A stretch of 64,000 bases of DNA from an uncultured Pelagibacteraceae bacterium. Its GTDB lineage: Bacteria > Pseudomonadota > Alphaproteobacteria > Pelagibacterales > Pelagibacteraceae. The stretch covers positions 116,465 to 180,464 of the forward strand of contig CACNQD010000004.1 in assembly GCA_902622545.1 (NCBI GenBank). Reading direction: 5' to 3'. Shown here in pieces: positions 19,065 through 45,122 of the stretch (position 1 is its first letter; every line of letters begins with the position of its first letter). Made by a program: the position numbers and the translations under genes. The notes under the pieces were generated by a model. It worked only from the letters and a program-made list of their open reading frames with translations, searched no databases and was not told where the DNA came from.

Positions 19065-19400
19065 ATGTTTATAAAAAAAATATTTAATGATTCTATAAAA
19101 ATACTTCTAACTTTGAGAAACTATTTTATAATTTTTGCTTTACTATTTTTAACAAATTGCGGTCAATATACTGCAATGATTGGGCCAAGTTATACACTAC
19201 TTGAATCAGGAAGTGTTTTACAAGCCACAAGTTCTTATGGTAGATCTTACTTACTTTCAAGTGCAAAACAGAGTTACACAGATGAGATTGATCCACAAAG
19301 AATTTGTCGAGAAGTACATAGTTCAGAATTACGATCTATATTTTTTGAGACACAAGACAAAAAAGGTTGTGTTTATGATCCGATGAGCGTCTATAGATAA
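19065..19400 (+). CDS. Hypothetical lipoprotein
   Basis: Hydrophobic stretch ending in lipobox-like FLTNC. Confidence 0.55.
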   Translation: MFIKKIFNDSIKILLTLRNYFIIFALLFLTNCGQYTAMIGPSYTLLESGSVLQATSSYGRSYLLSSAKQSYTDEIDPQRICREVHSSELRSIFFETQDKKGCVYDPMSVYR

Positions 19401-19409
19401 TTACAATTT

Positions 19410-19751
19410 TTAAAAGAAAATATAATAAATAATCCAAAATATAAGCGTATACTCAAAACAACTTTTAAAAAGTATCAATTGCTTTTCACTAAATTTTTGT
19501 ATCAAAAATTTTTTAAAAAGAAAAAAAATTAAATTAACTAATAAAATTCCAATAACTAAACCAATAATCGTAAGTTTGATTGAAAAGTTTTTATATCCAA
19601 AATAAATAGCTGCAATTAATGTAAACCAAGATACTTTTGTTATAAATATTTTAAAAATAAGCCCAGCTTTTTTACTAAATACAGATTGTGTTTTTATTAA
19701 TGAATAAGACCAGATAATTCCTATTAAAAAACTTGTAAACTTTAAAATCAT
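19410..19751 (-). CDS. Small hypothetical membrane protein (starts MILKFTSF)
   Basis: 113 aa, about 4 hydrophobic segments; 4-nt overlap with the upstream amt fusion. Confidence 0.7.
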   Translation of the reverse strand: MILKFTSFLIGIIWSYSLIKTQSVFSKKAGLIFKIFITKVSWFTLIAAIYFGYKNFSIKLTIIGLVIGILLVNLIFFLFKKFLIQKFSEKQLILFKSCFEYTLIFWIIYYIFF

Positions 19752-21985
19752 TTTCCAATCCCAATTATAGTTAAATCGTCATCAAGTATATCATTATTAT
19801 CTTTGATGCCTTTCTCTAAATAATCCTTTTTAAGACTTTTTTGTTTTATTTCTTCAGTAGCGTTGTCTAATTCCTTTTTTAAAACTTGGTTTTCATGTTT
19901 AAGGATTAATTTTTTAACTCCATTAATACCTAATTCTTCATTATTTTCATCTAAACATTCTGAAAAACCGTCTGTGAAACAATAAATTCTACCATTATCT
20001 AATTTAAAGCTCTCTAATTTATAAACATTTGCGTTAGTTTGTTTAACAATAGCTAGTGGTGTTGTTTCAGATGGAAATTCTCTAAAATCCTGTTCTTTTC
20101 TGTATAATGCTGGTTGATGTCCCGCATTTGCTATTTCTACAATATCTGTTTTTAAATTATAACACCCCACAATTGAAGTCACAAAAGTCCCAGTTGGATT
20201 TGTTTCTTTTAAGTCGTTATTCATTTCTAGCAGAATTTCGTTTGGTTTAAATTTTAGCTTTGAAAATATTTTAAATAACGTAATTGATTTAGCCATTACC
20301 ATCCCAGCATTCACGCCTTTTCCAGATACATCAGATAGAGTAAAATAAACCTGGTCATCGTGAAGATAAAAATCATAAAAATCTCCAGAAATTTCCCTAG
20401 CAGGAATATTTAATCCATAGATAGGATAATTTGTGAGATCCCTATTTGGCATAAGTTTTTTTTGAACATTCATTGCTAATTTAATTTCTGAAGATACTCT
20501 TTTCTTCCATTTGTTTTTTTGTTTTTCGCTTTGTTCTAATCGATCCATTAAAATGTTATATTGTGTTCCAATTATTCCACTATCTGTAAAAGGGTCTTGT
20601 GGTGCTCTTAGTGAATAATCTTCAGTTTTAGCTTGATTAGTTAATACCTCTAATAATTCATGAGTATCTGTTGATGCATTATGTTCAGAAATATTTAATC
20701 CTAATTCTTCTTGAATTTTTCCAACTCTTAAAGGGAAAATATAATTTATAGATTTAAATATTACGAATGCGGATATAAAACAAAAACCTCCTATACTAGT
20801 TACTCCTATTAATTGAATATATAATTGTTCCATTCTTGAAATTTCTAAACCCATCATTTCAAAATCACCAAATATAGCTACAGACAAAGATCCCCAAACT
20901 CCAGCAATAAGATGAACTGGTATTGCACTCACAACATCGTCAATTTTTAATTTTTCTAATAAGACTATACCAAAGCCTGAAAGCAGTCCTCCAATGCTTC
21001 CAATAAAAATAGCTTCACTTGGATTTACATAAGCACAACTTGCTGTGATTGAGACTAATCCAGCCAAAGGTCCGGTAATCATAAATAATGGCTCAGGTTT
21101 TTTCATGACAAAAATTCCTAGTATGCTTGAAAAGATTAAACCAAAAGAAGCAGACAAAAATGTATTAATTAAAATTAAAGGAATTTTTAAATCCATTGCC
21201 CCATTAGCTCCACCATTAAATCCGAACCAGCCAAACCACAAAATCAATGCCCCAAGTGCTGCTATAGGTGTATTGCTGCCTTGAAATAATTTTTTATCTT
21301 GATCTTTCCTAAATCTACCTGTTCTGCTCCCAATAATTAATAGAATTGCAAGAGCAACCCATCCTCCTACAGAGTGAACCACAGATGAGCCTGCAAAATC
21401 CAAATATCCCATCTTGCCTAGCCATCCAAATTTTTCAGATGGTTCGTCAAAATTAAATGCCCAAGCCCAGTGACCTACAATTGGATACAAAAATCCTGAC
21501 GTGACAAATGTAATAATTACATAAGAAAAAAATCTTAGCCTTTCTGCAACAGCTCCAGAAATAATTGTTGCTGCAGTTGCTACGAACATCGCTTGAAAGA
21601 CAAAATATGTTTGATAACCAGCTACTTTTGTTGTGAAAAAATAAAACTTATCACCAAACAAACCCATAACACTTGTTCCATACATAAGTGCAAATCCAAA
21701 TGCCCAAAATGTTACAACAGCTATTCCAAAATCAGTAATATTTTTTAATGCAACATTAATACTATTTTTATTTCTTGATAGGCCGGACTCAAGGCACATA
21801 AAACCAGCTTGCATCAAGAAAACTAGAATTGCACAAATCAATAACCAAAAAGTATCTAGATTTGCTTGAAGAATTGCTTCAAGTCGAAATTCCGTAGCTT
21901 TAAGTGCACCTTTATTTGTGAGTTCTAACTGGCTTATTTTTGACTGTAGCTTATCTATTAAAATCTGAAGATCAGCTACAGTCAT
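19748..21985 (-). CDS. Ammonium transporter fused to a HAMP-like linker and a SpoIIE/PP2C phosphatase
   Basis: Amt motifs MQAGF..LESG, DFAGSSVVH, LWFGWFGFNGG, DDVVSAIPVH; PP2C motifs SGDFYD, DVSGKG, TDGFSE, DDLTI. Confidence 0.9.
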   Translation of the reverse strand: MTVADLQILIDKLQSKISQLELTNKGALKATEFRLEAILQANLDTFWLLICAILVFLMQAGFMCLESGLSRNKNSINVALKNITDFGIAVVTFWAFGFALMYGTSVMGLFGDKFYFFTTKVAGYQTYFVFQAMFVATAATIISGAVAERLRFFSYVIITFVTSGFLYPIVGHWAWAFNFDEPSEKFGWLGKMGYLDFAGSSVVHSVGGWVALAILLIIGSRTGRFRKDQDKKLFQGSNTPIAALGALILWFGWFGFNGGANGAMDLKIPLILINTFLSASFGLIFSSILGIFVMKKPEPLFMITGPLAGLVSITASCAYVNPSEAIFIGSIGGLLSGFGIVLLEKLKIDDVVSAIPVHLIAGVWGSLSVAIFGDFEMMGLEISRMEQLYIQLIGVTSIGGFCFISAFVIFKSINYIFPLRVGKIQEELGLNISEHNASTDTHELLEVLTNQAKTEDYSLRAPQDPFTDSGIIGTQYNILMDRLEQSEKQKNKWKKRVSSEIKLAMNVQKKLMPNRDLTNYPIYGLNIPAREISGDFYDFYLHDDQVYFTLSDVSGKGVNAGMVMAKSITLFKIFSKLKFKPNEILLEMNNDLKETNPTGTFVTSIVGCYNLKTDIVEIANAGHQPALYRKEQDFREFPSETTPLAIVKQTNANVYKLESFKLDNGRIYCFTDGFSECLDENNEELGINGVKKLILKHENQVLKKELDNATEEIKQKSLKKDYLEKGIKDNNDILDDDLTIIGIGK

Positions 21986-21991
21986 AAAATT

Positions 21992-22324
21992 TTATTGATC
22001 TATTAATTTTCTTGCTTTTTCTGCATCTGTTATAATTTCATCAACTGACATTACTTTAACAACTTCAAATCCAGTTCCAAGAATTGTGTTTTTGTATTCT
22101 TCTTCTGATATAGGTGATTTTTCAGCAAAACTAGAAACGGCAACTCCCTCCGGCCAAGATACTTTTACCTTTGCATTAGGCATTGCTTCTTGGAGAGCCT
22201 TGGTAACCATTTTCTGACATTTAACACACATCATTCCATTTACTTGAGCAATTTGAGTTTGTGCAGCAAATAAATTTGTGGTCATGAAAAAAAATATAAC
22301 AAATAAGATTGTTTTTTTAATCAT
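21992..22324 (-). CDS. Exported heavy-metal-associated (HMA) domain protein
   Basis: Signal peptide; VNGMMCVKC metal-binding motif. Confidence 0.8.
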   Translation of the reverse strand: MIKKTILFVIFFFMTTNLFAAQTQIAQVNGMMCVKCQKMVTKALQEAMPNAKVKVSWPEGVAVSSFAEKSPISEEEYKNTILGTGFEVVKVMSVDEIITDAEKARKLIDQ

Positions 22325-22369
22325 AAAACTCCTTTGTAGAAATAGTGTAATTTATTTATTATTAATTTA

Positions 22370-22531
22370 CTAATTAAATTTTGGTTTAAATACCAAACAG
22401 AGTCTATTATTACAGTATCTAATTCCGGTTGGTTTTGGACTATCTTCAAATATATGCTCATGATGACCACCACAATTTTTAAAATGGTACTCAGTTCTAG
22501 CATATTTAAAGCTAGCAAACTTAAGGATCAT
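22370..22531 (-). pseudogene. Chimeric 53-codon remnant: 8 codons resembling the start of 19410..19751 fused to a decayed msrB 3' half
   Basis: Manual translation: MILKFASFKYARTEYHFKNCGGHHEHIFEDSPKPTGIRYCNNRLCLVFKPKFN*. Confidence 0.85.
22372..22504. repeat. Diverged direct repeat, copy 1 (copy 2 = 24162..24295, msrB 3' end)
   Basis: Hand alignment: 23 mismatches and 1 gap over 134 columns (~82% identity). Confidence 0.92.
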
Positions 22532-22547
22532 TTATTAGAAAATTTAG

Positions 22548-23240
22548 TTATTCTAGCGCTATTGATACCGAGGGCTCGTTTATCCACATTGCACAAGCAG
22601 TATCCTCTACACCAATTGCAGTTGTTGTGCCAAACTTTATTCTAATAACTGGTGCTCTCAAAGTTTTTTTATAAGAAGCAGTTAATGCATAGATCATTAC
22701 TGCATCATCTCCTGATACTGTCATTGATACCGCTGATGATGGAGAACTGTAATCATAATCAAGGTCAGAACTTCCTACATCACCATCTCTAGCGCCATCG
22801 CCTGCTCCATAACTCCCAGCATTAACTAAGTACATTGCTTCTGAAACAGCTGTTCCACCATTAGTTCCTAATGTTAGCTGTGTTGCGCCTGCATTATCAC
22901 CTCCATCAGTTCTACAAGTTTTAGCTCCAACTGATATGCTTGCAATAACGTTGAATGTTCTATCAAGAGTTACTCTTAAATGTGTATAGGTAATACCAGC
23001 AGGTATTCCAGTTGTTGGTGCATAAGAACTAACATCTGCACCTGCGGAAGCTGATGCGATATCAGCCGCCATAGATTTTGTTCCTAAAACATAAGGTGTT
23101 CCGCTACATGTTGCATTTTCACATAATTCAACTTTTTTCATCGTAACTTCATATTTTGTTGGTTGACCAGTTGCCTCTGCAGCAAAACTGTTTGAAAAAA
23201 ATAATAAAGACAATAAAACCAAAAAAATTATTTTTTTCAT
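22548..23240 (-). CDS. Secreted Gly/Ala/Thr/Ser-rich hypothetical protein with 4 Cys
   Basis: Signal peptide MKKIIFLVLLSLLFFSNSFA; ATG directly abuts the stop of the upstream barrel gene. Confidence 0.8.
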   Translation of the reverse strand: MKKIIFLVLLSLLFFSNSFAAEATGQPTKYEVTMKKVELCENATCSGTPYVLGTKSMAADIASASAGADVSSYAPTTGIPAGITYTHLRVTLDRTFNVIASISVGAKTCRTDGGDNAGATQLTLGTNGGTAVSEAMYLVNAGSYGAGDGARDGDVGSSDLDYDYSSPSSAVSMTVSGDDAVMIYALTASYKKTLRAPVIRIKFGTTTAIGVEDTACAMWINEPSVSIALE

Positions 23241-24128
23241 TTATGAATTTCCATTAGTTATGACTACTCCTGTGCTCTCAACCTCAAGCGTAATTATGTT
23301 ACTTCTTTTTACTTTAGTTAGCATTTTTTCTCTAACATCTGAATTTACAAATGCAGTGCTCGAAAAACCATCAGAGATAATTGGTCTGTCTTTCCCGCCA
23401 AGTTTATAAGTAAGTTTTATAAAGTCCATGCTGTCACTAATATCGTTATCATCATAACCGGCTTTTAATGTTAAATCGTTTGAGAGATTTATTGTTGTTG
23501 AATAAATTTCACCATTTGAGTCTTTCGAACCCTTTATTGCTTCCCAACCATAAGAGTTATATGAAATATTCGCCCATGGCGCATATGGAACCTGTCCCTC
23601 AAATTCTATATTATATCCGTCCAAAACTCTCTCAGTATCTGATCCAACCTCTTGTGATCCACCCATTGCGTCTAAATAATAATTTCCAGTAAAATTAAAA
23701 TTTGCTGCTTTTAATTCTGATCCTAAACTTACTCTACTATTCATCTCTTTATCTAAATCTAAAAAACTATTTAATCCCCAAAAATAACTTTCATCCTCTG
23801 ATAAAAATCTTTTTCCTATACCATAGTTTAAGGATTGACGTGCTTCACCCAAAACATGATAACTATTAAATTGTGCTTGGTAAAAGACTAAATCCTTCTC
23901 ATTAATAGAATATGGTCTTACGATCATTATAGTACCTGTTGGCTTATTTTCATTTTTGGTTGATAATGACACCTCGGTTTCTCCAGGCCCTTCAAGAAAG
24001 TTTTTTATATATGTTTCTGCTTTTTCTGAGCCTTTACCATAAACTTTATTTATTACATTATTTAAAGTATCTGCGTGTATCTCAGTAGCAAAAAACAAGG
24101 TTATAAAAATTGTTAGAATTTTTTTCAC
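23241..24128 (-). CDS. Inverse autotransporter (intimin/invasin-type) beta-domain protein without passenger
   Basis: GTG start, signal peptide; NYGIGKRF, WGLNSFLD, NYYL, ERVLDGYNIE, and C-terminal REKMLTKVKRSNIITLE resembling the intimin linker. Confidence 0.75.
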   Translation of the reverse strand: MKKILTIFITLFFATEIHADTLNNVINKVYGKGSEKAETYIKNFLEGPGETEVSLSTKNENKPTGTIMIVRPYSINEKDLVFYQAQFNSYHVLGEARQSLNYGIGKRFLSEDESYFWGLNSFLDLDKEMNSRVSLGSELKAANFNFTGNYYLDAMGGSQEVGSDTERVLDGYNIEFEGQVPYAPWANISYNSYGWEAIKGSKDSNGEIYSTTINLSNDLTLKAGYDDNDISDSMDFIKLTYKLGGKDRPIISDGFSSTAFVNSDVREKMLTKVKRSNIITLEVESTGVVITNGNS

Positions 24129-24161
24129 TATTATTTAATAATTAAATTTTAAGAATTATAC

Positions 24162-24295
24162 AATTAAATTTTAGGTTTAAATACCAAACAAATACCATTA
24201 TTACAGTATCTTTTGCCAGTAGGTTTAGGCCCATCCTCAAATATGTGACCATGATGACCGCCACAACTTTTACAATGATATTCGGTTCTTGCATA
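24162..24295. repeat. Diverged direct repeat, copy 2 (intact msrB 3' end)
   Basis: See 22372..22504. Confidence 0.92.
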
Positions 24296-24547
24296 ACCAA
24301 TATGATGATCCGTTTTTGTTTCGAACACATCTGGCAAAGATTCAAAAAATGATGGCCAACCAGATCCACTCTCGTATTTTTTTTTTGATTCAAAAAGTTT
24401 TACATCACAATTTACACAGTGATAACTTCCTTCTCTTTTTTCAAAATTTAATTCACTAGATCCAGGTCTTTCTGTTCCCTCTTCAAATAAAATTAATTTT
24501 TGCTCAGATGTTAAATTAGGATTTTTTTTCATATTACTGATGCACAA
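24164..24547 (-). CDS. msrB: Peptide methionine (R)-sulfoxide reductase (true start possibly the second Met, MKKNPN)
   Basis: GTERP, CVNC, SGSGWPSF, CKSCGGHHGHIFEDGP, RYCNN. Confidence 0.95.
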   Translation of the reverse strand: MCISNMKKNPNLTSEQKLILFEEGTERPGSSELNFEKREGSYHCVNCDVKLFESKKKYESGSGWPSFFESLPDVFETKTDHHIGYARTEYHCKSCGGHHGHIFEDGPKPTGKRYCNNGICLVFKPKI

Positions 24548-25422
24548 GTTTTGTGTAATATAGCATGAAGTCGGACCAATGTTTCAAAATCTTTATTGTA
24601 ACCACCTCCCAAAACTCCGCAAATAGGAATTTTTTTTTCAAAAAAGTTGTTAATTATTATTTCATCTCTTTGTTTTATTCCTTTTTCTGAAACTTTCAAT
24701 TTGCCCAATCTGTCATTTAAATGAATGTCGACTCCAGCTACATAAAATACAAAATCATACTTTTCTTTGTTTAATAGTAAAATATTTTTCTTAAGTTTAT
24801 TAAGATATTCATCATCTTCAGTGTTATCATCTAGGCCCACATCTAAATCACCATTTGTTTTTTTTGCAGGATAATTAGATTTACAGTGCATACTAAAGGT
24901 GAAAACAGATTTATCGTTTTTGAAAATATCTGAAGTTCCATTTCCTTGATGAACATCAAGGTCAACTATTAAAACATTTTTTGCATAGCCTCTTGATTGT
25001 AAATATCTAGTTGCAACCGCCACATCATTAAAAACGCAATAACCAGCACCTTCGTTATAACTTGCATGATGACTTCCTCCAGCAGTATTACATGCAATAC
25101 GATGATCAACAGCAAGTTTGCTTGCCAAGACAGTTCCACCAGTTGCTCTAAAAGATCTATTCACAACACTATCATTGATTGGAAAACCGATTTTCTTTTG
25201 AGATTTAGTGTCTAAAGTTTTTTTTTTGACACTATTTATATAATCTAAAGAATGTGCTCTGCTTAAAGTATTCTCTGAACAAAACTCAGGTTTGTAAAAT
25301 TTATCTACTACCTTTTGGTTTATTAAATAGTTTGCAAGCTCTCCAAACTTTCTTATTGGGAACTTATTATCATCATTTATTTTTGCAACGTAATCCTGGT
25401 GGTTGACTACTGGTAGTTTCAT
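24529..25422 (-). CDS. Zn-dependent histone deacetylase / AcuC-family amidohydrolase
   Basis: GGSHHA, GYCVFND, DLDVHQGNGT, GGGY. Confidence 0.9.
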   Translation of the reverse strand: MKLPVVNHQDYVAKINDDNKFPIRKFGELANYLINQKVVDKFYKPEFCSENTLSRAHSLDYINSVKKKTLDTKSQKKIGFPINDSVVNRSFRATGGTVLASKLAVDHRIACNTAGGSHHASYNEGAGYCVFNDVAVATRYLQSRGYAKNVLIVDLDVHQGNGTSDIFKNDKSVFTFSMHCKSNYPAKKTNGDLDVGLDDNTEDDEYLNKLKKNILLLNKEKYDFVFYVAGVDIHLNDRLGKLKVSEKGIKQRDEIIINNFFEKKIPICGVLGGGYNKDFETLVRLHAILHKTCASVI

Positions 25423-44497: not shown

Positions 44498-44526
44498 TGA
44501 ATCTAATAATATTGCTTTTATATTAT
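44498..44526 (+). promoter_or_regulatory. Sigma70 promoter of ssrA
   Basis: TTGAAT-17 nt-TATTAT. Confidence 0.75.
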
Positions 44527-44532
44527 ATGTGT

Positions 44533-44790
44533 TGGTTTTCCAACTACGACGATAAACGAATTTCGTAATAAACATTGCGGACGTGGGGGCAGTACCCACC
44601 ACCTCCACCAAAAATTTACAACTTATGGGGGTGAACTAGGATCGACGGATGTCTAAAAGTCTTTCTTTCGTTCGGGATTGTTCCACCGTAACGGGCTATT
44701 TATAATTGCAAATAATAAATTTGCACTTGCAGCTTAATTAATTTTTTAATTAAGTTACGGGGTCTGGGGCACCTGGCAACAGAACGCCCC
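44533..44790 (+). ncRNA. ssrA: Circularly permuted two-piece tmRNA; ends approximate
   Basis: Acceptor piece ends ...GGGGCAGTACCCACCACCTCCACCA (44610); 16-nt spacer; coding piece starts GGGGGTGAACTAGGATCGAC (44627); tag ORF 44708..44737 = ANNKFALAA*; 3' CACCTGGCAACAGAA motif. Confidence 0.95.
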
Positions 44791-44799
44791 TTTTTTTTT
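44766..44799 (+). terminator. Terminator at the ssrA 3' end
   Basis: GGGGC...GCCCC followed by T9. Confidence 0.7.
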
Positions 44800-44825
44800 A
44801 TTAAAAAATTCTATAAATTATAACT

Positions 44826-45122
44826 ATGTTGATAGGTTTTATTACTTTATTTATAATATATCTTTTGCATAAATACATTACCGCTTGGATCAAATATTAT
44901 AATGAAACGGATGAAAGGTTTGGAGATTCTGTTTGGCGATGGTCCTACGACTATAAGGTAAAGGGGATTAGAGATATTTCTGATTTAGACGACAAAGAAT
45001 TTGTAAGAAAAAGAAGGATTAGAAATAGAACGGTCTCGTTTATGTACTGGAACTTTTTTATAGGATTTACTGTTTCTATGTATTTAATAAGTGATGTTCT
45101 TATGTTTATTTTAAACAATTAA
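44826..45122 (+). CDS. Small hypothetical membrane protein
   Basis: 98 aa; N- and C-terminal hydrophobic helices around a charged loop. Confidence 0.7.
   Translation: MLIGFITLFIIYLLHKYITAWIKYYNETDERFGDSVWRWSYDYKVKGIRDISDLDDKEFVRKRRIRNRTVSFMYWNFFIGFTVSMYLISDVLMFILNN

Follow-up and report, generated by a model that had tools for sequence, protein, structure and literature searches.

Between msrB and a gene whose product begins with MILKF (the MILKF gene), the window, which is the whole stretch of 64,000 nucleotides of DNA analysed here, carries two alternative SAR11 cassettes in tandem. We consider it probable that this arrangement arose when a cassette A haplotype and a cassette B haplotype were joined once by illegitimate recombination, and that cassette A was later lost, in haplotypes now carrying only cassette B, via the msrB repeats that the joint created. 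The order in the window is msrB, cassette A, a scar consisting of nucleotides 1–24 of a MILKF gene fused to 134 nt of an msrB 3′ end, cassette B and MILKF. The features of the locus are listed below, with L001 as a relative carrying only cassette B and L004 as a relative carrying only cassette A.

24164..24547, minus strand: full-length msrB, upstream anchor gene of the hotspot (Pfam SelR, E=6.5e-42; 98% identical to L001 msrB)
24197..24211, minus strand: 15-nt block AGATACTGTAATAAT in full-length msrB, identical to the block at 22406..22420
23241..24128, minus strand: cassette A gene 1, 295 aa (Pfam IAT_beta, E=2.3e-26)
22548..23240, minus strand: cassette A gene 2, 230 aa, with hydrophobic N-terminal leader
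22370..22531, minus strand: fusion ORF of 53 aa, in which the two remnants below happen to be joined in frame
22508..22531, minus strand: 5′ remnant of a MILKF gene, codons 1–8, from the cassette A haplotype
22374..22507, minus strand: 3′ remnant of a foreign msrB: its final 44 codons, beginning with the Gly in HHIGYARTEY and running to the original stop
22406..22420, minus strand: 15-nt identical block of the remnant, partner of 24197..24211
22325..22373, minus strand: cassette B spacer from msrB stop to HMA start, including the RBS (100% identical to the msrB–HMA spacer of L001)
21992..22324, minus strand: cassette B gene 1, 110 aa protein with HMA (heavy-metal-associated) domain and hydrophobic N-terminal leader
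19748..21985, minus strand: cassette B gene 2, 745 aa fusion of ammonium transporter and PP2C (SpoIIE) phosphatase (Amt-PP2C)
19410..19751, minus strand: full-length MILKF gene, 113 aa, hydrophobic, downstream edge of the cassette slot

The first gene of cassette A encodes an inverse-autotransporter-type beta-barrel without passenger domain, with 85–87% aa identity in the A-only relatives L002, L004, L005 and L008. The product of the second gene had zero matches in the Pfam profile search and is likely secreted, judged from its leader; its aa identity is 95% in L002 and 57–67% in L004, L005 and L008, and an identical protein occurs in 46 indexed blocks of the assembly collection. In cassette B, the HMA match (E=3.4e-4) lies under the family cut-off, and this protein shows 100% aa identity in L001. 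Amt-PP2C matches Ammonium_transp (E=5e-108) and SpoIIE (E=4e-27) and is 99% identical in L001; a fusion of this type is a known flexible SAR11 gene, named Amt-GI5 (PMC11796062). Its stop overlaps the start ATG of the MILKF gene, whose product is likely a membrane protein.

The initial annotation described an ORF at 22531..22370 that starts like the MILKF gene and continues as a copy of the msrB 3′ end with about 82% identity, and this description holds. The ORF is present on the minus strand, and the msrB-like local alignment (window 22504..22348 versus 24295..24139) corresponds to the sole long direct repeat of the region (22348-22504 / 24139-24295, 157 nt, 77%); in the coding part, 108/132 aligned positions are identical between the remnant and full-length msrB. 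The remnant matches SelR with E=1e-10 over residues 7–50, which cover profile positions 72–116 of 116 only. The codon counts given against the resident msrB (11 synonymous and 7 non-synonymous differences) proved exact, and the Cys reported as lost corresponds to TGT>TTT in the second CxxC motif. Eight MILKF codons were also correct, but the msrB piece begins one codon earlier than described, at Gly.

Taken alone, the match of the MILKF remnant to the start of the window's own MILKF gene (18/24 nt) would be marginal evidence of descent: it is the best 24-mer match window-wide on both strands, yet three chance matches reach 17/24. The MILKF origin of 22531..22508 is certain because of the relatives, since the start of the gene in L004 is identical at 23/24 positions. 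MILKF codon 8 directly abuts an internal Gly codon of msrB, leaving one non-homologous border. The ancestral junction AGC TTT/GGA TAT is in frame with zero filler, and TTT GGA TAT is found in 9/9 aligned metagenome copies; a further contig (L097) equals the window exactly. By this comparison, AAA at 22507-22505 in the window is derived, as is the window's GAG (Glu) codon. The joint would have at most about 2 nt of microhomology, judging from other msrB alleles only. A 1-nt deletion at 22383/22382, near the end of the remnant, yields the KPKFN tail of the ORF, and the join is not responsible for it.

Synteny was compared at the msrB site of 80 SAR11 genomes or loci, plus metagenome contigs. Across the 80 loci, the slot is empty in 18 and contains a Gig2-like gene in 29, MILKF only in 12, variants of the barrel and secreted genes in about 17 and cassette B in 1. 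Single-cassette strains had been expected, and they were found for A (four, named above) and for B (L001, L095, L096 and L098), so that msrB–(barrel+secreted)–MILKF, msrB–(HMA+Amt-PP2C)–MILKF, msrB–MILKF and the empty site all exist among relatives. Moreover, homology with these relatives breaks at the predicted joint. In A-only genomes, collinearity with the window extends across the secreted gene and the intergenic spacer exactly to 22508, where alignment stops and picks up again at 19752; for B-only L001, alignment stops at 24139 and picks up again at 22504. These breakpoints, together with the single-cassette relatives, support the proposal that two haplotypes were joined in tandem by illegitimate recombination.

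Downstream of msrB, SAR11 genomes have a small variable slot that lacks an integrase and always follows msrB immediately. As in replacement-type flexible islands, one locus has alternative unrelated contents in all strains, and exchange proceeds via homologous recombination with identity tracts ending in flanking genes. In L096, identity is ~70% in HDAC and then 96–100% across msrB, starting at its 5′ end, and cassette B. Identity between the window and L001 reaches 96–100% in 26300-24200 and 22390-19800, compared with 85–90% in the background, and these two tracts are contiguous in L001.

Codon comparisons show that the msrB remnant derives from a divergent working msrB foreign to the window's clade. 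Against the resident msrB, pN/pS is 0.15 with pS of 0.6–0.74, and the synonymous excess is significant relative to neutral decay from that gene (P about 1e-5), in agreement with the initial view that the fragment diverged as a working gene in another lineage. At third codon positions, the remnant is identical to the window's own msrB clade at 15–20/34 and to L056 and L020, which belong to other subclades, at 25/34; it is thus placed outside the window's clade, and none of the sampled msrB genes is close to it. A tandem duplicate of the resident msrB was rejected on these same values.

In the window's lineage, we suggest, one A-type chromosome and one segment of B-type DNA were joined a single time: codon 8 of the A-haplotype MILKF gene was ligated directly, by chance in frame, to the Gly that lies 44 codons from the end of the msrB preceding cassette B. 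The incoming DNA would have been anchored on one side by homologous pairing, in MILKF and beyond it downstream or else in msrB and upstream of it, and its other end would have been joined where microhomology was at most about 2 nt. Homology-facilitated illegitimate recombination (HFIR) is the most likely route to such a joint, and the A-type chromosome may have been the recipient of the B-type segment. Haplotypes share homology in both outer flanks, one being msrB with its upstream sequence and the other MILKF with its downstream sequence, and recombination tracts terminate in these flanks. The donor is unsampled: a full remnant-type msrB followed by cassette B was absent from the 80 genomes and from the metagenome pattern scan. 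Natural transformation is not known in SAR11.

After this event, the two msrB 3′ copies would act as direct repeats, and a crossover just past the 15-nt identical block would delete cassette A, leaving a B-only haplotype whose msrB is chimeric yet intact. In L001, L095, L096 and L098, msrB is chimeric: it follows the window's full copy up to AATAATG, and then the remnant, the spacer and cassette B, with the switch point immediately 3′ of the 15-nt block. This structure fits the loss of cassette A through recombination between the two msrB repeats (~130 nt). Ordinary homologous recombination would then have carried the B-only haplotype into other SAR11 backgrounds. The B-only copies of cassette B are 0.3–0.8% apart and interspersed among tandem copies; because they are not a single clade, allele shuffling between haplotypes is implied. 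However, 3/4 B-only contigs were retrieved because they encode an HMA protein identical to that of the window, so that window-like alleles are favoured, and the direction from tandem to B-only is inferred from this small sample. The initial annotation held that either cassette could be excised. Loss of cassette A agrees with the chimeric msrB of B-only genomes, but no derivative lacking cassette B and arising from the tandem was found among the sampled SAR11 relatives, and the 24-nt MILKF repeat (75% identity) is a poor substrate for recombination.

The reversed order of events seems unlikely. Here, a B-only haplotype with native msrB would be ancestral, and the tandem would have arisen by integration of cassette A from a circle or loop (134 nt of msrB 3′ end, cassette A and MILKF 1–24) closed by the illegitimate joint, through a single Campbell-type homologous crossover in msrB beside the 15-nt identical block. 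This order gives exactly the same final structure and crossover position, accords with the 98–100% identity between the window's msrB upstream of the crossover and that of B-only L001, and would derive the remnant from the donor of cassette A, whose sampled relatives diverge by 13–20%. However, copies of cassette B differ by up to 5.2% in tandem haplotypes versus 0.8% or less in B-only ones, and the B-only copies lie inside a shallow tandem subcluster, both under the biased sampling described above. In addition, A-type cassettes are resident in the window's clade at about background divergence, cassette B at this site is known only from tandem-related alleles, and both a circle and a crossover within about 130 nt of 79% identity are required. 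Illegitimate joining of A and B, followed by loss of A, is therefore the order that we prefer.

Most probably, neither remnant has a function. Comparisons among population copies indicate that the msrB remnant now decays as a pseudogene and that the fusion ORF is not a conserved gene: the changes C>F, G>S, K>I and G>R in the remnant fall at positions invariant across sampled full-length msrB, the ORF is 51, 52, 53 or 69 aa long, and its start codon is gone in L083. The in-frame fusion, its ATG and the metatranscriptome contigs over the region would suit a functional small protein, such as a truncated MsrB-like peptide, but we think this very improbable, given this variation, a SelR domain that has lost two thirds of its length and with it the first CxxC, and the loss of a Cys of the second CxxC with three other invariant residues; transcription over the region would be expected from read-through alone. 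A functional MsrB (SelR) protein was likewise rejected, as its SelR domain is incomplete, a CxxC Cys is lost and the frame is unconserved in the population.

Islands integrating at 3′ ends of genes often bring a replacement 3′ end that displaces the original. A mobile element or site-specific recombinase of integron or island type might have used the msrB 3′ end as its target, with the msrB copy as an att-type duplication, and the invariable position of the slot right after msrB would agree with this. Such an origin is hardly credible. No integrase is encoded at the site, where every gene between 16976 and 27565 has a housekeeping role or belongs to a cassette; no tRNA lies within 20 kb, the only related feature being a tmRNA at 44515; and no att/attC-like or conserved inverted repeats occur in the window or at cassette borders. 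Moreover, the msrB pair is a 79–82% diverged gene fragment whose conserved core consists only of chance blocks, and fusion to MILKF codon 8 is not expected from a site-specific event in msrB. Other stacks at the site (an A-type cassette plus a Gig2-like gene) were inserted cleanly, with neither scar nor msrB duplication. A site-specific integrative island or integron cassette was thus rejected for want of integrase, att/attC and tRNA, and the site is integrase-free, as first proposed. Scar-type stacking looks like a single old event and not a routine property of the locus.

The window comes from a single-amplified genome assembly and MDA is known to generate chimeras, but concatenation of two strain variants by single-cell or metagenome assembly is effectively refuted already and has next to no probability: the same junction is found in 13 independent metagenome contigs (96–99% identity) that come from various samples and assemblers and carry SNPs and indels of their own, it is internal to Logan contigs of 3 DNA runs and spanned by contigs of 3 metatranscriptomes, at least 66% of its k-mers are held by at least 20 runs from 11 studies, and the joint has no shared k-mer for an assembler to bridge. 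The junction is also the same throughout the diverged tandem copies of cassette B. The tandem is therefore an old, diversified population haplotype.

The scar is a rare, datable record of gene gain, and apparently also of loss, in a bacterium without mobile elements. It is doubtful that it is the visible tip of a general integrase-free cycle of gain and loss in SAR11 and not a one-off. If such a cycle exists, one-sided homologous anchoring plus an illegitimate joint would turn replacement slots additive, leftover gene-fragment repeats would drive precise loss, and streamlined genomes lacking mobile elements could sample cassette combinations reversibly. In that case the msrB slot would serve as a model in which all four states (empty, A, B and A+B) coexist in the ocean.

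The locus is a new natural example of a process that is itself already known. HFIR has been described in naturally transformable bacteria, namely Acinetobacter (de Vries & Wackernagel 2002), S. pneumoniae (Prudhomme 2002) and P. stutzeri (Meier & Wackernagel 2003), as cited in PMC5361080 and PMC3240628. As in those bacteria, foreign DNA would here have been added beside a homologous anchor; one joint is non-homologous and shows hardly any microhomology or none, neither a recombinase nor a mobile element takes part, and fragments of flanking genes remain at the border. However, HFIR was seen in experiments, whereas here it is inferred from a natural scar in SAR11, in which transformation is not established. 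Furthermore, the SAR11 event joined alternative alleles of one locus, giving a tandem with direct repeats of gene fragments.

Orphan immunity-gene arrays downstream of T6SS effectors in V. cholerae, and C-terminal displacement in Rhs/CDI loci (PMC5361080 and references there), are similar in that successive incoming modules do not replace the old one but push it downstream and leave 3′ remnants of the displaced gene. HFIR has been proposed for these loci too, and in both cases ordinary homologous replacement is commoner at the same locus. In contrast, the SAR11 locus shows one stacking event, its cargo is not a toxin–immunity module, its remnant comes from the housekeeping flanking gene msrB and not from the variable gene, and a product of the reverse deletion is among the sampled haplotypes.

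Replacement and additive flexible genomic islands of marine bacteria, including SAR11, share with the msrB slot a constant chromosomal position, varying content and homologous exchange in conserved flanks, and hallmarks of illegitimate recombination are stated to be absent at such islands (PMC4033161, PMC11796062, PMC10734472). The msrB slot differs in that an explicit illegitimate joint is preserved, by which a replacement slot has become additive with neither integrase nor tRNA.

The window belongs to SAR11 (Pelagibacteraceae). No bacterial clade in the ocean is more abundant, and its genomes carry almost no mobile elements and a large flexible gene pool. Studies of SAR11 genomic islands infer homologous recombination as the route of exchange, since illegitimate recombination has left no visible mark there (PMC4033161, PMC10734472). 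At the msrB locus such a mark is preserved at single-base resolution, and natural samples include the parental haplotypes with one cassette, the tandem product and what is probably a deletion derivative. The relevant genes all lie on the minus strand:

24529-25422, minus strand: HDAC-like gene
24164-24547, minus strand: msrB (SelR)
23241-24128, minus strand: 295-aa IAT_beta barrel (cassette A)
22548-23240, minus strand: 230-aa protein with hydrophobic N-terminal leader, likely secreted (cassette A)
22370-22531, minus strand: small ORF under study
21992-22324, minus strand: HMA protein (cassette B)
19748-21985, minus strand: Amt-PP2C (SpoIIE) fusion (cassette B)
19410-19751, minus strand: 'MILKF', 113-aa hydrophobic protein, likely membrane

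Downstream of MILKF and convergent with it lies a 111-aa ORF with no Pfam match (19065-19400, plus strand); its distant relatives adjoin Amt-PP2C-like or PP2C-like genes elsewhere (L015, L025, L033, L108 and L111 among the related loci and contigs), and this neighbourhood suggests a functional link with such modules. Further along the window, ARAGORN reports a tmRNA (44515-44828) with tag peptide ANNKFALAA, permuted into the two-piece form expected in an alphaproteobacterium.

The initial annotation described the small ORF as a MILKF-like start fused to an msrB 3′ end, and this observation is confirmed. Its 3′ part copies the msrB 3′ end (local alignment of 22504..22348 with 24295..24139), the sole long direct repeat in the region; 108 of 132 positions of the coding part are identical to full msrB, and Pfam SelR matches through its last 45 profile positions only (E=1e-10). 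The reported codon differences, 11 synonymous and 7 non-synonymous with one Cys of a CxxC motif lost, are exact. Judged within the window, evidence for the MILKF half is weak: its start is the best match there to the window's own MILKF (18/24), but this is barely above chance (17/24). In L004, a relative with cassette A only, the MILKF start (ATGATCCTAAAGTTTGCTAGCTTT) is identical to 22531..22508 at 23 of 24 positions. The 53-aa fusion ORF returned no record when looked up as a called gene. In population copies the ORF has 51, 52, 53 or 69 aa or no start codon, and the remnant 3′ end carries at least three different indels. The fused ORF is a pseudogene fusion and not a gene.

Haplotypes were read by tblastn with the window's proteins over 80 related loci from an msrB genome scan, all from Pelagibacteraceae SAGs or MAGs, and every predicted haplotype was present among them.

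Haplotypes at the msrB locus among the 80 SAR11 loci
msrB-HMA-AmtPP2C-MILKF: L001, the closest relative
msrB-barrel-secreted-MILKF: L002, L004, L005, L008
msrB-MILKF: L003, L006, L007, L009-L012 and others
msrB-grx, nothing between: 18 loci

In nucleotide alignments, collinearity with the window extends in A-only relatives from far upstream to exactly 22508 (base 24 of the MILKF-like start) and begins again at 19752; in the B-only relative it extends to 24139 and begins again at 22504. Up to MILKF codon 8 the window is thus an A haplotype, and beyond it a B haplotype that starts inside msrB. These single-cassette relatives and their breakpoints support the earlier interpretation that two SAR11 haplotypes were joined in tandem, with the corrections that the event was single and old, that loss is supported for cassette A only, and that recipient and direction may be read either way.

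Spanning of the junction had been proposed as a check, and independent assemblies as well as contigs from DNA runs and metatranscriptomes span it. The junction region has a 100% match in contig CACJVW010000001.1 of single-cell assembly GCA_902596955.1, and the exact secreted and HMA proteins are each indexed in many assemblies. The same junction occurs at 96-99% identity in 13 metagenome contigs from different samples (L082-L090, L093, L094, L097, L099), each with its own SNPs and indels. At least 66% of junction k-mers are found in >20 runs from at least 11 studies, and the junction is crossed by Logan contigs of three DNA runs and by contigs of three metatranscriptomes. Since the two sides share no k-mer, an assembler could not have created the joint. 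Moreover, tandem copies differ by up to 5.2% in the first 1 kb of cassette B, and hence the junction predates substantial diversification. In metatranscriptome contigs of RNA runs X25, X27 and X28, depth was 14-20 over HMA (21900-22230) and 3-5 over the secreted gene and junction (22450-23260); contig depth is a poor measure of expression, and this difference could reflect an HMA-proximal promoter or a contribution of B-only strains.

The joint reads AGC TTT/GGA TAT GCT in 9/9 aligned metagenome copies, and L097 instead matches the window. AGC TTT/GGA TAT is MILKF codon 8 followed by an msrB Gly codon (...HHIGYARTEY...), in frame and without filler. Both AAA (22507-22505) and the GAG (Glu) codon of the window represent derived states, which L097 alone shares among sampled copies; AAA was accordingly rejected as junction filler, being a window-specific GG>AA change. 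Microhomology was also rejected at TGCTAG, both copies of which are retained, and at ATAGGA, where a crossover would require an extra 6-nt loss.

Between remnant and resident msrB, pN/pS is 0.15 and pS 0.6-0.74. A synonymous excess this large (binomial P about 1e-5) rules out that a copy of the resident gene simply decayed neutrally, in agreement with the earlier proposal that the remnant diverged as a working gene elsewhere. The remnant is 76-81% identical to msrB of its own clade (15-20 of 34 third positions), and its best matches, L056 and L020, reach 87-88% (25/34); it is no closer to its own clade than to other subclades. No sampled msrB gene matched as its source. Metagenomes were also scanned for intact msrB with the remnant's synonymous signature CCAAAACCAACCGGAAARAGATA; the donor haplotype was absent from the six hits, which were four non-SAR11 msrB and two SAR11 contigs in which msrB is of another type and a distant barrel cassette comes after it. 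The remnant decayed after the join: C>F, G>S, K>I and G>R, at residues invariant in sampled full-length msrB, are found in every copy of it. Its last ~35 nt (22374-22399 compared with 24174-24190) are much closer to the window's own clade, with a 17-nt identical block, than the preceding 90 nt; the remnant itself may be a mosaic, or the full copy may have converted part of it.

In all four B-only sequences (L001, L095, L096, L098), msrB equals the window's full copy up to ...AGATACTGTAATAATG, and 3′ of this point they are identical to the window's remnant, spacer and cassette B. The switch falls immediately 3′ of a 15-nt block common to both copies (24211-24197 and 22420-22406) and 3′ of every inactivating change of the remnant, and hence the chimeric msrB is intact. 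L001 is generally 85-90% identical to the window and 96-100% over 26300-24200 and 22390-19800, tracts that are contiguous in L001. The simplest reading is that cassette A was deleted once: a crossover between the two msrB 3′ copies would remove it and leave a B-only haplotype with chimeric msrB. The opposite sequence of events, in which a circle bearing A entered a B-only genome by Campbell-type insertion, is less likely; it draws on the fact that B-only cassette B alleles are not monophyletic and on a sampling caveat, as an exact match to the HMA protein of the window was the way in which three of the four B-only contigs were found. Divergent HMA alleles (P0001, P0002, P0006), looked up for an unbiased B-only sample, followed STAS and pilin-like genes in another genomic context or lay on contigs whose shortness hid the context, and they gave no help in rooting.

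The B-only copies of cassette B, 0.3-0.8% apart, fall among a shallow subset of tandem copies. One crossover point is common to the four B-only contigs, with no deletion at a different point among them, and recurrent excision of cassette A is not shown. The claim that either cassette could be excised is supported for cassette A by the chimeric msrB, but no derivative without cassette B was found; the MILKF repeat, of 24 nt and 75% identity, is a poor recombination substrate. In L096 (920-2618, compared with window 25424-21948), HDAC is only ~70% identical to the window, and msrB and cassette B are 96-100% identical in a tract starting at the msrB 5′ end, which shows ordinary homologous exchange of cassette plus flank across subclades.

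Beyond the msrB site, the closest relatives of cassette B (84% nt) follow STAS-domain genes elsewhere in the genome, and their homology with the window covers exactly 22327..19750, so the mobile unit is just HMA and Amt-PP2C. The Amt-phosphatase fusion is known as the flexible SAR11 gene Amt-GI5 (PMC11796062). In L106-L112 (e.g. L108 1237-2286, L111 2191-2751), HMA and Amt-PP2C relatives follow STAS-domain genes and a pilin-like N_methyl gene, and the sequence just upstream of HMA can be read as a short C-terminal peptide of PP2C-like type, a hint that the fusion may feed a STAS partner-switching pathway. In two metagenome copies collinear with the window, Amt-PP2C is called split (486+241 aa; L085 1696-3933) or truncated (221 aa; L098 1197-1862), and these breaks could stem from frameshifts in a gene that is dispensable or from faulty assembly.

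Cassette A (22548-24128) pairs an inverse-autotransporter-type beta-barrel that has no passenger domain with a separate 230-aa protein encoded behind it. The pair resembles a hypervariable surface module and may be a split autotransporter; L025 carries two barrels (module loci: L013, L025, L032, L054, L059, L060, L066, L067, L074, L075, L079).

Occupants of the slot directly after msrB (n=80 loci)
Empty: 18
Gig2-like/PhyH dioxygenase gene: 29
MILKF only: 12
Barrel+secreted variants, only 29-35% aa identity: about 17
Cassette B: 1

The commonest occupant between msrB and grx encodes a 410-aa Gig2-like/PhyH-type dioxygenase (L020 10384-11616 and 28 other loci). In L039, L045 and L066 the gene comes after an A-type cassette in a stack, and no flank is duplicated.

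The site had been called integrase-free, and indeed no integrase, transposase, tRNA or att/attC-like repeat was found there. The further idea of a hotspot that stacks cassettes in this way needs qualifying, as the scar event looks single and old and no scar was found in other stacked loci (A-type with Gig2-like, or two barrels), which are clean insertions. Cassettes at the site are thus usually swapped cleanly through homologous recombination in the flanks, the route proposed for islands of this sort (PMC4033161, PMC10734472). The window would represent a rarer outcome, one homologous side plus one illegitimate joint, i.e. homology-facilitated illegitimate recombination (HFIR). Because the window's clade has A-type cassettes as residents and cassette B is known at the msrB site only from tandem-related alleles, an A-type recipient is favoured, which would have captured a fragment [msrB 3′ end-spacer-HMA-AmtPP2C-MILKF...] of the donor; with the roles exchanged the product is the same.

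The locus raises the questions of how a cassette is added rather than swapped in an integrase-free genome, how long scars last and whether they mediate later loss; with the haplotype series sampled in nature, gain, scar survival and loss become directly testable. The scar is of specialist interest and does not amount to a system of a new kind: model bacteria already provide cases of HFIR-like joining with subsequent repeat-mediated deletion, and the locus is a clean natural example of a known recombination process in an organism where scars were thought absent. It resembles HFIR as defined in transformable bacteria, and the orphan immunity arrays of Vibrio T6SS loci, for which HFIR has been invoked (PMC5361080, PMC3240628).
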